Shown: piece after piece, positions 1,932 through 5,657 of the stretch
How the letters are laid out: the number at the start of each line of letters is the position of its first letter
How positions within the stretch are numbered: position 1 is the first letter of the stretch
From: a virus
Taxonomy: Duplodnaviria > Heunggongvirae > Uroviricota > Caudoviricetes
Direction: 5' to 3' (one strand)
Virus record (IMG/VR): IMGVR_UViG_2609460218_000011
Length of the DNA stretch: 5,657 nt
Notes under the pieces: model-generated
The model's input: the letters and a program-made list of their open reading frames with translations, nothing else
What the model was told of the DNA's origin: nothing
The model's database searches: none
Translations under genes and position numbers: made by a program

Positions 1932-2154
1932 AGCCTTACAGGAAATCGCTGATCAGCAGGCCGCACTCCGGCAAAAATTTTGCCCGGTGTGGCGCTTTTG
2001 CCACAAGGGAGCCCTTAGCCAGGCCGCAGTGCTGATACAAAAAAACATCCCACACCCCGAGTGGGTTTTTACAGCTGTGATGCTGTTCGTCGGCGATAAT
2101 CTCTCATCACTAAGGGAAACACTACATGACCCAGATGATTGTCCTTGCGCTTGA
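1621..2154 (+). CDS. Hypothetical protein, alternative frame; may be the continuation of the 1431 ORF after a frameshift
   Basis: This frame opens at 1597 (after TGA 1594-1596), 12 nt upstream of an A6 run (1609-1614). Internal ATG 1712 is preceded by GAGGTGGGA. The translation contains plausible helical stretches such as DKALQEIADQQAALRQK. Its end overlaps the 2126 start by 29 nt. Confidence 0.25.
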   Translation: MALLFCAPSAGEFLSLARQFSGAFPLPEVGRMSRMISSQFSLAISRMQIPARPVTSLPEPIMLSTQTTRSMSLAATIAQAATPAVTSPETLSSSLRQFMNARDKALQEIADQQAALRQKFCPVWRFCHKGALSQAAVLIQKNIPHPEWVFTAVMLFVGDNLSSLRETLHDPDDCPCA

Positions 2155-2701
2155 CGGGGAAGCCATTCTGCTGCGCAACATCACCGTCAGCGCCACCATG
2201 CAACTACCGGACAAAGATATGTCCGGACAATCAACCAGCACCACGAGCGCCCAGCAGGGAAACAAGGCCAAAGAGCTGCGCGTATCGGGGATTATTGATT
2301 TTAACGATGAAGCTATTTTGACCCGTATTTTTCAGCTTGCGGAGGCAACAGAAAGCAACGGAGCCAAAAAAACATACCGCATCGCCAACGCTACTGCTAA
2401 GGCGATTAATATGCGACAGGGTGTTTTTTCGGGCAGCATCGATGCCACGGAACAACAGGGCAAGATGCACTGGCAGGTCACCTTTACCCTCAGGGAAAAA
2501 TTAAGCGTGCCGGAAAAAGCATCGGCACGCAGTGGCTCACAGAAAACAATCGCAAAGCAGCAGACACAGAACGGCAGTGAGCAGGTACCGGATAAAGGAA
2601 TGAATACCCAGGAGACTTTCTGGAAAAATATCAATGATGGTATTGGCTCCGGTCTGGACTGGATTGGCATCGGGAGCGTGAAGGAGGAAGGGAAAACATG
2701 A
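2126..2701 (+). CDS. Hypothetical protein (191 aa), first gene of a coupled pair; probably phage-associated
   Basis: SD-like AAGGGA (2112-2117) lies 8 nt upstream of ATG 2126. Its stop TGA 2699-2701 overlaps the next start ATG 2698-2700 (ATGA), indicating translational coupling. No catalytic motif recognised by eye. Confidence 0.6.
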   Translation: MTQMIVLALDGEAILLRNITVSATMQLPDKDMSGQSTSTTSAQQGNKAKELRVSGIIDFNDEAILTRIFQLAEATESNGAKKTYRIANATAKAINMRQGVFSGSIDATEQQGKMHWQVTFTLREKLSVPEKASARSGSQKTIAKQQTQNGSEQVPDKGMNTQETFWKNINDGIGSGLDWIGIGSVKEEGKT

Positions 2702-4395
2702 AATTAATCCAACGCTGTATGATTAATGGCGAGCTGGCGGAAATTGCCGATATCAGCCTTGTTCTTACCCTGAATGCTGCCGGTCGTGGTTTCATTTCTG
2801 TTAATAATCTGCCACCCAAAAAAAGTCTTGCCGGCGCAATGATACAAATTGATCTCGGCCGTAATGGTGAGGCATGGCGCTATTTCTCCGGCTACATTGA
2901 ACGCGATCAACCCGCCGAAAATGGCTCACGCCGCCTTTTTATCCGTGAAGCAGCTGCCGTGCTGGATTTTGATTTCCCCTGCTCCATGCAACATCCAACG
3001 TTACGGGATGTACTCGATAATCTGGGTAAACAAAGCGGCATCGTTTTCATCACGCCAGACGCGGATTACGTCGGTACTCCGACACCTTACATCACCCACA
3101 GCGGCAGCGGAACACAACTGCTTAGCCAGCTGGGGCGAGCATTCAGTATCAGCGATTACGTCTGGCATCCAATGCCGGACGGTTCCGTATTTGTGGGAAG
3201 CGCATCGGATTCACGGTTTGCCAGTATTACCATGCCGGATATTCCGCAACAGTACACACTCGGGCAAAGCGGCGGAAACAGCATCGACATCATGTTTATG
3301 GAAACTGTGCGACCGGGCGTGAACCTTCCAGCCGGGCGCATTACCCGTGTAGCCCTCAACAACGAGAAAATGACCCTGACATGGGAACGCCTTACCACCA
3401 CGGGTAGCCCTGTTTCCAAATCACCATTACGCAGACAGATGGAAACACAGTTCCCGGAACTGGCCAGCGGTACTCTACATACCAGGCTGGCGCGCGTCAT
3501 TGCCCCAACGGAATCCGTCACCCTGGGCGATGTTGCCGACAGTTTCCGCCCACGCTACGCCGTCGATGTGCAACTGCTTGATGAGAACGGCAACGATAAA
3601 AGCGATACGCCTGTTTATCCGGCAGTACCACTCCCCGTCCCGATGGCTGGTAGCGAGGCGGGATGTTTTGCCTACCCGCCGGCTGGCACCATCGTGGAAA
3701 TATCCAACATTGAAGGACGACCGGATAAACCTGTCATCAGGCAAATCTTACCCGCAGGCCATAACCTGCCTGATGTAAAGCCCGGCGAACAGCTGCAGCA
3801 ACAGCGCGCAGAAGTGTTTCAGCGCGTCACAACTGACGGAAGCTGGCACAGAGAAACCGACCAGCAAATCAGGGAGCATTCAGCCAGGCGAACCATTAAC
3901 AGCGATCAGGAAGAACGCACAACAACAACCAGAACAACAACAGTCCAGGCAAACGACATAACCAGTGTTCTTGGTACCAGCAAACTGATGACAGGCCAGA
4001 CAGAACACCTTACTACCGGCAATTATGCGATCGCAGCCGGTGAGCATATCCAGATGGTAGCGCAGGATTTGCTGACTCAACTCAAAGGGGCGATATCCAC
4101 CATTGAGCATGACCTCACCGAAAACGTGGGAGGCCGCAGAACATGCAGAGCGGACGGCGGTCTGGAGTTTACCGCTCCGACAGTATTTATTGGTCGCGGC
4201 GGCTCGCGGGAAAAGTCAGGGCTTAACCTGCTGACGTTGCTGATCGATATTCTGGATCTGATTCAATTACTGGCCACACATACAGCAAACCACACCCATA
4301 GCAACACTGACGCACCAATGAACAGCAGCGAACTTGCCGCAGATGCCCTGCAGGCGACGAGCCTGCGCGAAAAATACGGCGACATTATCGCCTGA
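2698..4395 (+). CDS. Hypothetical protein (565 aa), possibly a phage tail/fibre-associated structural protein
   Basis: Longest ORF in the window. AGGAGG (2682-2687) and GGGAA lie upstream of ATG 2698, which is coupled to the upstream gene. It contains a Thr-rich low-complexity tract (ERTTTTRTTTVQ, about nt 3910-3947) and a C-terminal His-rich motif ATHTANHTHSNTD (about nt 4273-4311). It is followed by a hairpin terminator. No NTPase or nuclease motif recognised. Confidence 0.7.
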   Translation: MKLIQRCMINGELAEIADISLVLTLNAAGRGFISVNNLPPKKSLAGAMIQIDLGRNGEAWRYFSGYIERDQPAENGSRRLFIREAAAVLDFDFPCSMQHPTLRDVLDNLGKQSGIVFITPDADYVGTPTPYITHSGSGTQLLSQLGRAFSISDYVWHPMPDGSVFVGSASDSRFASITMPDIPQQYTLGQSGGNSIDIMFMETVRPGVNLPAGRITRVALNNEKMTLTWERLTTTGSPVSKSPLRRQMETQFPELASGTLHTRLARVIAPTESVTLGDVADSFRPRYAVDVQLLDENGNDKSDTPVYPAVPLPVPMAGSEAGCFAYPPAGTIVEISNIEGRPDKPVIRQILPAGHNLPDVKPGEQLQQQRAEVFQRVTTDGSWHRETDQQIREHSARRTINSDQEERTTTTRTTTVQANDITSVLGTSKLMTGQTEHLTTGNYAIAAGEHIQMVAQDLLTQLKGAISTIEHDLTENVGGRRTCRADGGLEFTAPTVFIGRGGSREKSGLNLLTLLIDILDLIQLLATHTANHTHSNTDAPMNSSELAADALQATSLREKYGDIIA

Positions 4396-4435
4396 ACACC
4401 AGACATAAAAGCCACATAAACGCCCCATCACGCAA

Positions 4436-4459
4436 CGCACGGTCCCGGCCGTGCGTTTT
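4436..4459 (+). terminator. Putative Rho-independent terminator of the 191/565-aa operon
   Basis: Stem CGCACGG (4436-4442), loop TCCCGG, stem CCGTGCG (4449-4455), then TTTT (4456-4459); 41 nt downstream of the stop at 4395. The T-tract is short. Confidence 0.5.
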
Positions 4460-4935
4460 CATATCTGCCACCTGATTAATCGTTCTGCGTGCCATTCTGG
4501 CGCTGTATGCGCACACCGCGCAAACGGCGTGACGTAAAGCGTGAGGTGACGTAAACCGCGCTACCCCCTCCAACCCGCGGGTTTTGTGTCGAAACACTTT
4601 TTCAGTTTTCTGCCGTGCAAAAATGACCGCCAGCCCGCGCAGCGACTGAGGGAAAAGCGAAGATCTGAAATTTCACGCTTTGAAATTTTTTGCAGTTTTC
4701 AGCGAGTTTTTTACGATCTCATAAATGGCAGGAGCAATGAAACTGCATGATATTAAAAGAGTTTTCATGCTTTGCGCGAGACGAAAAACGATCAAAAAGG
4801 ATCGCGACAAAAAATCGTCAAACAACGAAGCCAGACGCGGCGCGGCCTGCGTAAAATTGAGAGTCAAAATTAAACTGAAAAAAGGATCAATAACGCGCCT
4901 CGATCGCACATGACGATCTACGCAGCAACAGAGCG

Positions 4936-4958
4936 AAAAAAACCGGCGCGAACGCCGG
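4936..4958 (-). terminator. Strong Rho-independent terminator acting on the minus strand
   Basis: On the minus strand: CCGGCG (comp. 4953-4958), UUCG tetraloop, CGCCGG (comp. 4943-4948), then seven U (comp. 4936-4942). The plus strand has no T-tract after the hairpin, so it is directional. Confidence 0.55.
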
Positions 4959-5000
4959 CGGAAGCATGTATCAAATGCGTGACTGAATAATGTATAAGGT
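4936..5000 (-). ncRNA. Candidate small RNA of about 60 nt, transcribed divergently from the hok-type promoter
   Basis: Minus-strand sigma70-like promoter: -35 TTGAGG (complement of 5030-5035), 18-bp spacer, -10 TAAAAT (complement of 5006-5011). This predicts a start near 4998-5000 and termination at the 4936-4958 terminator. No ORF of note lies inside. Confidence 0.25.
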
Positions 5001-5039
5001 CGGGAATTTTACATCAGAAGACCGACAAACCTCAACGGA

Positions 5040-5069
5040 TTGAAACAAGGGAAAAAACCAGGCTAGAAT
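5040..5069 (+). promoter_or_regulatory. Sigma70-like promoter of the hok-type toxin transcript
   Basis: -35 TTGAAA (5040-5045), 18-bp spacer, -10 TAGAAT (5064-5069). The predicted start near 5076 coincides with the first base of the 5' fold-back element. Confidence 0.45.
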
Positions 5070-5075
5070 TCGCGC

Positions 5076-5427
5076 GGGTGCCTTTCGGCTGATGGCTGGA
5101 GGGAATACCTGAAGGCCGGATGTGGAAAGGCCCCGGAAAACATTTTTGTTTAACCGAGGCCCTAACCATCTACCCTAGACAAGTGATAGGTTAGCGCCTC
5201 CCCGAAAAAGGAGCAAGCGCTATGTCGCAAAAATCGCTTACAGCCATCACGTTCTGCGTGACGGCAATCCTCATCATCTGGATGTTGCACGGTTCACTGT
5301 GTGAGATACGGATGAGTTTTTGGGGAGCGGAGTTTGCGGCGTTCTTACAGTGTAAACAGTAAGGAAACCGCGGCGGGGGAGCAATCCCCCGTCAATCGGT
5401 TGCTAAGGTAAGGTCGTAAAGGCACCC
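5076..5427 (+). other. hok/gef-type toxin mRNA unit with 5' (tac-like) and 3' (fbi-like) complementary elements
   Basis: GGGTGCCTTT at 5076-5085 is the exact reverse complement of AAAGGCACCC at 5418-5427 (10/10). A GC-rich hairpin (GGGGGA-GCAA-TCCCCC, 5375-5390) sits in the 3' UTR. This matches the long-range 5'/3' pairing known for hok mRNAs. Confidence 0.55.
5222..5362 (+). CDS. Hok/Gef-family type I toxin (46 aa), small membrane peptide
   Basis: Translation: MSQKSLTAITFCVTAILIIWMLHGSLCEIRMSFWGAEFAAFLQCKQ. It has an N-terminal hydrophobic helix, the conserved SLCEIR motif and a C-terminal Cys, as in Hok-family peptides. SD AAGGAG (5208-5213) lies 8 nt upstream of ATG 5222; stop TAA 5360-5362. 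Not in the ORF track because it is under 60 codons. The specific paralogue is not recognised, so no symbol is given. Confidence 0.75.
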   Translation: MSQKSLTAITFCVTAILIIWMLHGSLCEIRMSFWGAEFAAFLQCKQ

Positions 5428-5486
5428 TATCTTCTAACATATGAGTGGAAAATCCTACGGGGAAAAATGTAAACCTCGTCCTTGCC

Positions 5487-5657
5487 GGTGATGCTGCCAA
5501 CTTACTGATTTAGTGTATGATGGTGTTTTTGAGGTGCTCCAGTGGCTTCTGTTTCTATCAGCTGTCCCTCCTGTTCAGCTACTGACGGGGTGGTGCGTAA
5601 CGGCAAAAGCACCGCCGGACATCAGCGCTATCTCTGCTCTCACTGCCGTAAAACACT
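5487..5657 (+). mobile_element. IS1-family insertion sequence, partial copy cut by the window edge; IRL terminus at 5487
   Basis: GGTGATGCTGCCAACTTACTGATTTAGTG... in forward orientation, the reverse complement of positions 16-186. The last two bases (5656-5657, CT) differ from the left copy (TG). Confidence 0.9.
5542..5657 (+). CDS. insA: IS1 InsA, N-terminal portion; continues past the window end
   Basis: GTG 5542 opens a frame translating [38 protein letters not shown]..., matching the InsA N-terminus. Confidence 0.85.

Follow-up and report, generated by a model that had tools for sequence, protein, structure and literature searches.

Type I toxin–antitoxin pairs whose antitoxin is a divergently encoded small RNA (sRNA) include IstR-1/tisB, OhsC/shoB, and OrzO/zorO. 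The antitoxin RNAs of these systems have about 18–21 nt of complementarity to the mRNA of their toxin. Trans-acting sRNAs encoded by prophages are also known, among them DicF, IpeX, and the AgvB/AsxR RNAs of EHEC prophages. A third arrangement is found in phage Mu, where momP1 and momP2 are competing promoters that stand back to back. The locus described here resembles the first group in its layout, in that a small, terminator-ended RNA is predicted to be divergent from, and directly upstream of, a gene for a small membrane toxin. It lies in a 5,657-nt stretch of tailed-phage DNA (IMG/VR record IMGVR_UViG_2609460218_000011), which we call the window and whose numbering is used throughout; related loci are denoted by L numbers. 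An earlier note on this DNA had suggested that the candidate RNA could be the antitoxin of the adjacent hok-type gene. A small-RNA signal beside a type I toxin need not come from its antitoxin, and the analysis points to a different, tentative role.

The Window and Its Parent Prophage

In the window, a 5.3-kb fragment of a prophage is enclosed by two IS1 ends. These inverted ends (18–186 and 5487–5655), which we take to be IS1 from their sequence, are each 169 nt long and 100% identical to one another, a layout like that of a composite transposon. The complete genome that comes closest, NZ_CP053720.1, has these prophage genes too, with an IS1A transposase annotated by PGAP on their left. There hok is followed by a serine acetyltransferase gene, which indicates that the right-hand IS1 is peculiar to the DNA from which the window came. 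The prophage part holds a truncated tail-fiber gene (255–1406), an open reading frame (ORF) of phrog_1398 with unknown function (2126–2701; a baseplate complex protein according to PGAP in some genomes), and the gene for a 565-aa baseplate protein of phrog_2258 (2698–4395). An 830-nt stretch with no annotated gene, referred to here as the gap, separates the 565-aa baseplate gene from hok (5222–5362).

The intact relatives of this fragment are P2-like prophages that carry an integrase, Cox, a gpA-type replication endonuclease, ogr, portal, terminase, and a P2-family capsid. The P2-like prophage is 42 kb long and, at the end away from the integrase, has a com/mom-like gene pair. These genes suggested a Mu-like identity, which was ruled out by the full prophage map. 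One intact P2-like prophage (L066, 26890–28168; NZ_LR778147.1) encodes ParM and a plasmid partition/stability protein besides hok/sok and an integrase, which hints at a phage that is also able to persist as a plasmid.

Two further features of the window were noted in passing. A plus-strand intrinsic terminator at about 4431–4460 (ACGCACGG...CCGTGCGT, then TTTTC) directly follows the 565-aa baseplate gene; it varies slightly among relatives, and the scan finds the L042 copy but not that of the window. Rfam gave a weak match to RsmY within coding sequence (2044–2185, minus strand; 18.8 bits against a gathering score of 57, E = 0.24), which is almost certainly a chance match driven by a hairpin at 2049–2065.

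A Promoter–Terminator Pair Divergent from hok

A σ70-like promoter, TTGAGG-18-TAAAAT, had been read on the minus strand in the earlier note, and a consensus scan recovered it at 5035–5006, with 9 of the 12 consensus positions matched. Its −35-like hexamer (TTGAGG) occupies 5030–5035 and its −10 hexamer (TAAAAT) 5006–5011. Judged by count alone, promoter-like matches in the consensus scan of the whole window are not above chance (4 observed, 5.3 expected). The hok promoter, TTGAAA-18-TAGAAT, was located by the same means on the plus strand (5040–5069). The two −35 hexamers therefore stand back to back on opposite strands, with 4 bp between them.

Downstream of the divergent promoter, scan and fold both bear out the strong terminator of the earlier note (six-pair GC stem, UUCG loop, U7) at 4959–4936. 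The hairpin, GCCGGCG-UUCG-CGCCGGU (4942–4959, minus strand), has a stem of seven pairs, six of them G-C (CCGGCG/CGCCGG) and one a closing G·U, capped by the UUCG loop. It is followed by a U7 tail (4936–4942, minus strand), which ranges from five to eight U in relatives. Folded alone, the hairpin has an energy of −12.9 kcal/mol (z = −2.9). Read on the plus strand, A7 comes before the hairpin and CGGAAGCATG, which lacks a T-run, comes after it, so only minus-strand transcripts would be terminated. The arrangement of a Rho-independent terminator, a G+C-rich hairpin leading directly into a U-run, is thus found on the minus strand alone. The U7 tail is also in keeping with a feature of Hfq-type sRNAs, a tail of at least six U after an intrinsic terminator.

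The frequency of such a combination by chance was assessed in 300 windows simulated with a first-order Markov model. Terminators this strong arose at 0.013 per simulated window, and a promoter-like site 30–120 nt upstream of such a terminator was found in 0 of the 300. The promoter–terminator pair is present and is far above chance expectation.

The predicted RNA would run on the minus strand between 5001 and 4936 (about 64–66 nt), its 5′ end being taken from the position of the −10 hexamer. A start placed some 6–7 nt past the −10, near 5000/5001, together with the 46 nt that separate the end of the −10 from the stem, gives an RNA of about 64 nt. In the centroid fold its 5′ portion of about 40 nt is mostly unstructured. 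A discrete RNA of about 60 nt, back to back with the hok promoter, had been predicted in the earlier note, and the comparison of related loci given below argues for such an RNA. Rfam searches of the whole window and of the 176-nt block that contains the candidate (4900–5075), at E values up to 10, yielded no family for it; the best score, to rseX, was 18 bits against a gathering score of 50 (E = 4.8). A full-text search of a literature library for the terminator and body sequences returned no match, and a keyword search returned nothing relevant.

The hok Gene Has Its Own Antitoxin

The hok coding sequence (5222–5362, plus strand) specifies a protein identical to one that PGAP names "Hok/Gef family protein". 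Its mRNA was placed at 5076–5430 on the plus strand from an Rfam leader match and from reading of the sequence. The match, to the sok/hok leader family RF01794, covers 5076–5235 at 46.3 bits (E = 3e-8), a score under the gathering threshold. The 5′ end of the mRNA, GGGUGCCUUU (5076–5085), is complementary to AAAGGCACCC (about 5415–5424), which lies downstream of the gene. The tac/fbi end pairing, a mark of the hok family, is likewise seen in the complementarity of GGGTGCCTTT to AAAGGCACCC.

Sok, the canonical cis-antisense RNA, was placed at 5120–5180 on the minus strand by transfer of the sokC annotation from K-12, after alignment of the locus with hokC and hokB of that strain. It is perfectly complementary to the hok mRNA and folds as the expected long hairpin (−26.9 kcal/mol, z = −4.9). 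A probable promoter, TTGCTC-17-TAACCT, is found just upstream by eye and is below the reach of the consensus scan. The terminator tail of Sok is weak, consisting only of UUUCC, which makes read-through from Sok plausible. The Hok/Gef peptide, the complementary mRNA ends, and the antisense Sok together identify a hok/sok type I system, and its own canonical antitoxin is present and sufficient.

The proposal that the candidate is a divergent, trans-acting antitoxin was examined by comparing its 5′ part and the whole RNA with the hok mRNA (5076–5440), with the leader alone, and with Sok, using shuffled controls. The absence of extended complementarity to the hok leader, noted earlier by eye, was confirmed by computation: the longest Watson-Crick run between the candidate and the hok mRNA is 8 nt, which 13%–29% of shuffles equal (p about 0.13–0.29). 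Duplex energies against the hok mRNA (RNAduplex) gave z scores of −0.66 to +0.43, no better than shuffles, and over all comparisons with hok mRNA, leader, and Sok the range was −0.66 to +0.82, again like shuffles. The L042 variant showed no pairing above shuffles with its own hok mRNA (z = +0.33). No complementarity between the candidate and Sok was detected, which argues against a sponge role. Nor does the candidate have the position of a Sok RNA, which overlaps the hok/mok leader in antisense; it occupies 5001–4936, and the hok mRNA begins at about 5076. The sok covariance model (RF01794) found no match in 4900–5075 even at E values up to 10.

A type I antitoxin is inherited together with its toxin gene, and the candidate block is not. 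Homologous hok genes (77%–94% identity) occur in 1,679 E. coli genomes, against 41 genomes with the block, so that about 1,640 genomes have a homologous hok and lack it. In most of the matches listed, similarity starts within the hok −10 region, and the sequence upstream is therefore not shared. Two of these loci were looked at in detail: in L067 (NZ_CP019051.1) hok comes after ogr in a different P2-like prophage at flk, and in L068 (NZ_CP062725.1) it comes after lom in an O157 lambdoid prophage; the terminator is absent from both. Homologous hok loci occupy other prophage cargo slots, with up to seven copies in some genomes. Closer to the window, hok without the block is seen in L027, L059, L058, and the Edwardsiella relatives. 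The earlier note had looked to RNA–RNA interaction with the hok leader and to conservation of the block beside hok-type loci as ways to judge its proposal. The former is at chance level and most hok loci have no counterpart of the block, so the proposal does not hold up: with both complementarity and co-inheritance failing, the candidate is not an antitoxin of the IstR/OhsC/OrzO type.

Distribution and Lineages of the Divergent Unit

The 176-nt block (4900–5075) is carried by 41 of the 5,426 complete E. coli genomes (0.8%), always in this P2-like prophage. Outside E. coli it occurs in E. albertii, in viral contigs, and in metagenomic ones; a BLAST search of phage and plasmid collections with the gap gave no match. 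The Edwardsiella relatives have only the conserved region that neighbors the block, the block itself being absent.

Several lineages differ in how much of the unit they retain. In class B, a recombinant lineage (L006–L008 and L036; about 9 of the 41 genomes), the sequence switches at about 4996, and no consensus promoter is detectable there though body and terminator are intact. In L027 and L059 window positions 4919–5038 are replaced by about 35 nt, so body and terminator are gone. These two loci nevertheless have a divergent promoter, TTGAAC-16-TATGAT (5213–5240 of L027, minus strand), beside the hok promoter. In L039 everything from 4889 onward is replaced. L042, which is 76% identical to the window over the gap, keeps a promoter (TTGAAT-17-TAAAAT) and a terminator, the latter formed by a GCCGGCGU-AUU-ACGCCGGU hairpin and a run of eight U; a U-rich stretch lies directly 5′ of the hairpin. 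By eye, under half of the positions of the L042 RNA body match, against the 76% over the gap. In L043, too, about 34 nt of the body have six substitutions (by eye), whereas the gap as a whole is 93% identical. A divergent promoter is thus seen in the window-type lineage, L042, and the L027-type, and none of consensus type is seen in class B. The spacing between the divergent −35 and the hok −35 is 4–18 bp across the window, L042, and L027. Among lineages the −35 hexamer varies (TTGAGA, TTGGGG, TTGACT, TTGAAT, and TTGAAC) around a GTTGA core common to all of them, and the −10 is TAGAAT in one lineage and gone from class B. Two other pattern matches, L052 and L055, proved to be chance matches unrelated to the candidate locus.

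Diversity (π) was calculated for each element over 21 distinct related loci. The lowest values are those of the −10 (0.016) and the terminator hairpin (0.021), although such low diversity could partly stem from shared ancestry and recombination among close relatives. The hok promoter has a value of 0.029, the U-run 0.059, the body 0.082, the start region 0.129, and the −35 0.133. The 18-nt promoter spacer is the most variable element (0.210), and the GATC region to the left stands at 0.130. The sole −10 substitution seen, TAAAAT to TAGAAT, retains A2 and T6 and still makes a good −10. In the terminator stem, 98% of cells are paired in 15 variants. Two one-sided stem changes in L060, G-C to G·U and G·U to A-U, leave the minus-strand RNA paired, and the first would give an A·C mismatch on the plus strand. 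No compensatory double substitution was found among the variants, so covariation support for the stem is weak. Judged from the comparison, the candidate block is probably a transcription unit, although the missing consensus promoter of class B and a body that has diverged further than the DNA around it (L043, L042) count against this. Such a body also does not show the conserved single-stranded seed of an Hfq-dependent sRNA.

A Conserved GATC-Rich Block Precedes the Cargo

Between the last tail (baseplate) gene and the candidate lies a conserved non-coding block (4460–4935). It is found in every relative, whichever cargo follows it: hok in most, and in L039 and L062 a protein with a signal-peptide-like N terminus. 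The core of the block (4549–4705) is 74% identical in Edwardsiella, against 60% for the adjacent protein. The divergent promoter of L027 and L059 would read straight into this block.

Seven of the 15 GATC sites of the window fall within 254 nt of the block (4662, 4715, 4790, 4800, 4885, 4902, and 4915), and the block includes two GATC pairs 10–13 bp apart. Their offsets from the core are nearly identical between E. coli and Edwardsiella. In one Edwardsiella locus (L053) the final GATC pair lies directly against the hok −35 region; in L058 all GATC sites of the block are lost. The cluster suggests Dam-, SeqA-, or OxyR-type control. A Pap-like GATC spacing of 102 bp was considered and discarded, as the match is not significant given 21 pairwise distances. 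Two motifs, ACGTAAA and TTTTTCAGTTT, are repeated in the block in both orientations. The first, as ACGTAAA(G/C), occurs at about 4537 and 4553 on the plus strand and at about 4775 on the minus strand. The motif TTTTT(T/G)CAGTTT occurs at about 4592 and 4688 (plus strand) and at about 4880 (minus strand), and L058 has extra copies of GACGTAAA. These recurring motifs may be binding sites for a regulatory protein, and the block as a whole looks like a protein-binding, possibly Dam-sensitive control region.

A coding search of the 830-nt gap on both strands found no conserved ORF and no Pfam or PHROG match. ORFs in the gap shift frame between lineages, and the window itself has a 1-nt deletion. 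A 31-aa hydrophobic ORF that resembles a type I toxin (4768–4673, minus strand) was rejected, since it varies at non-synonymous positions and has no counterpart in L042 or Edwardsiella. RNAalifold detected no covariation that would point to a conserved RNA structure on the minus strand of 4699–4933 (covariation term +0.04). PGAP places no annotation in the 4460–4935 region across eight genomes. This GATC-rich non-coding block, unannotated so far, is a more intriguing lead than the candidate RNA.

Discussion

We propose, tentatively and at somewhat short of an even probability, that the self-contained unit works in cis, by making a short, self-terminating divergent transcript that would occupy and insulate the upstream side of the hok promoter. 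A cis role is favored by the conservation of the transcription signals where the RNA body is not conserved, and by the retention of a divergent promoter in L027, which has neither body nor terminator. RNA polymerase would bind the upstream face of the hok promoter region and fire leftward; the intrinsic terminator would halt this transcription after about 64 nt and would stop read-through from Sok as well. Antisense transcription would thereby be excluded from the GATC-rich region and from the late tail operon. Because the −35 hexamers are only 4–18 bp apart, the divergent and hok promoters would probably compete for polymerase. We infer the transcription of the unit, its start, and its insulating or competing role from sequence comparison. 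Against the cis reading, class B has no consensus promoter though its terminator and body are intact. The terminator is also dispensable, as Edwardsiella, L058, and the L027-type do without it.

The same features have been weighed for other explanations. A trans-acting, probably Hfq-binding prophage sRNA, whose single-stranded 5′ part would pair with an mRNA or a different sRNA from the host or another phage, would account for the separate promoter, the intrinsic terminator with U7, and the mostly unstructured 5′ segment of about 40 nt. It would also fit the gain and loss of the module as one unit and the U-rich stretch just before the L042 hairpin. We regard it as the main rival, though an unlikely one, because a body less conserved than both its signals and the surrounding DNA (L043, L042) is the reverse of a conserved seed. 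Furthermore, among the 47 translation-start regions of the 42-kb prophage none paired with the candidate above shuffles (the best shuffled score was at least equal in 83% of trials), and there is no Rfam family for the candidate. That the block lies exactly at a hotspot of recombination and indels (4919–5038 in L027, from 4889 in L039, about 4996 in class B) brings up a neutral relic with no present function, in which a junction of prophage cargo exchange has kept a terminator that is now an orphan and a promoter that is decaying or arose by chance. The loss of the −10 from class B with the rest kept, the occurrence of the block in only 41 of 5,426 genomes, and the unconstrained RNA body all agree with such a relic. 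A relic sits poorly with the variability of the −10 and the terminator, which is clearly below that of the flanks and the adjacent spacer, with the survival of both signals in L042 despite heavy divergence between them, and with stem changes in L060 that keep the RNA paired; we consider a relic unlikely, to about the same degree as the sRNA.

Three other readings carry less weight. The unit could be the 5′ leader or attenuator of a longer minus-strand gene or RNA in 4460–4935, its terminator being a regulated stop. The L027 divergent promoter enters this highly conserved region with no terminator in the way, and minus-strand ORFs of 75–106 aa are present there in some lineages. These ORFs are frame-shifted or broken in most lineages, however, including the window with its 1-nt deletion, and the two longest have roughly 60% amino acid identity (by eye), under the 76% DNA identity. 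The want of Pfam and PHROG matches, of PGAP annotation in eight genomes, and of covariation (+0.04) in this region, along with a 40-nt leader that shows no alternative anti-terminator fold, makes a regulated leader very unlikely. Still less can be said for the candidate as antitoxin to hok, whether the first or a second one, with action in trans as for IstR-1, OhsC, or OrzO. Its divergent position directly beside the toxin promoter, with hok always to the right of the block among the loci collected, is what recommends it. A canonical Sok is already there, though, complementarity to the hok mRNA goes no further than 8 nt with duplex energies at shuffle level, the L042 RNA is likewise negative against its own hok, and about 1,640 genomes have a homologous hok with no block. 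We judge an antitoxin role highly improbable. A broader scheme, in which the divergent unit and the GATC block form a Dam-methylation-sensitive control region that sets expression of the cargo slot (hok, or the secreted protein of L039), is improbable in our estimate; the RNA of about 64 nt would then either serve as its read-out or, traveling with hok, regulate host genes.

If the unit is transcribed, a temperate phage would have one more unannotated small RNA among its cargo, and a toxin promoter would be paired with a self-terminating divergent promoter, an arrangement that could tune the toxin mRNA or shield phage genes from antisense transcription.

Set against the systems with which we began, the candidate departs from IstR-1, OhsC, and OrzO in that its longest complementary run is at chance level and its toxin already has an antisense RNA of its own. 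Sok (RF01794; sokC in K-12) provides a second point of reference: the candidate shares its strand, its length of about 60 nt, and its hairpin end, but its whole span is upstream of the point where hok transcription starts, and it has neither similarity nor complementarity to Sok. With DicF, IpeX, and AgvB/AsxR, the candidate, which is known from sequence, has in common that it is short, has its own promoter and an intrinsic terminator, and lies in a prophage accessory or cargo region. It differs from them in having no conserved seed and no target among the translation-start regions of the prophage. Like momP1 and momP2 of Mu, the divergent and hok promoters are so close (−35 gap of 4–18 bp) that polymerase footprints must overlap, and the prophage resembles the Mu setting further in carrying com/mom-like genes. 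Unlike momP2, the candidate unit has a dedicated terminator about 64 nt downstream. If real, it would be a short, terminator-ended transcription unit in a prophage cargo region, rare, and of a kind already known.
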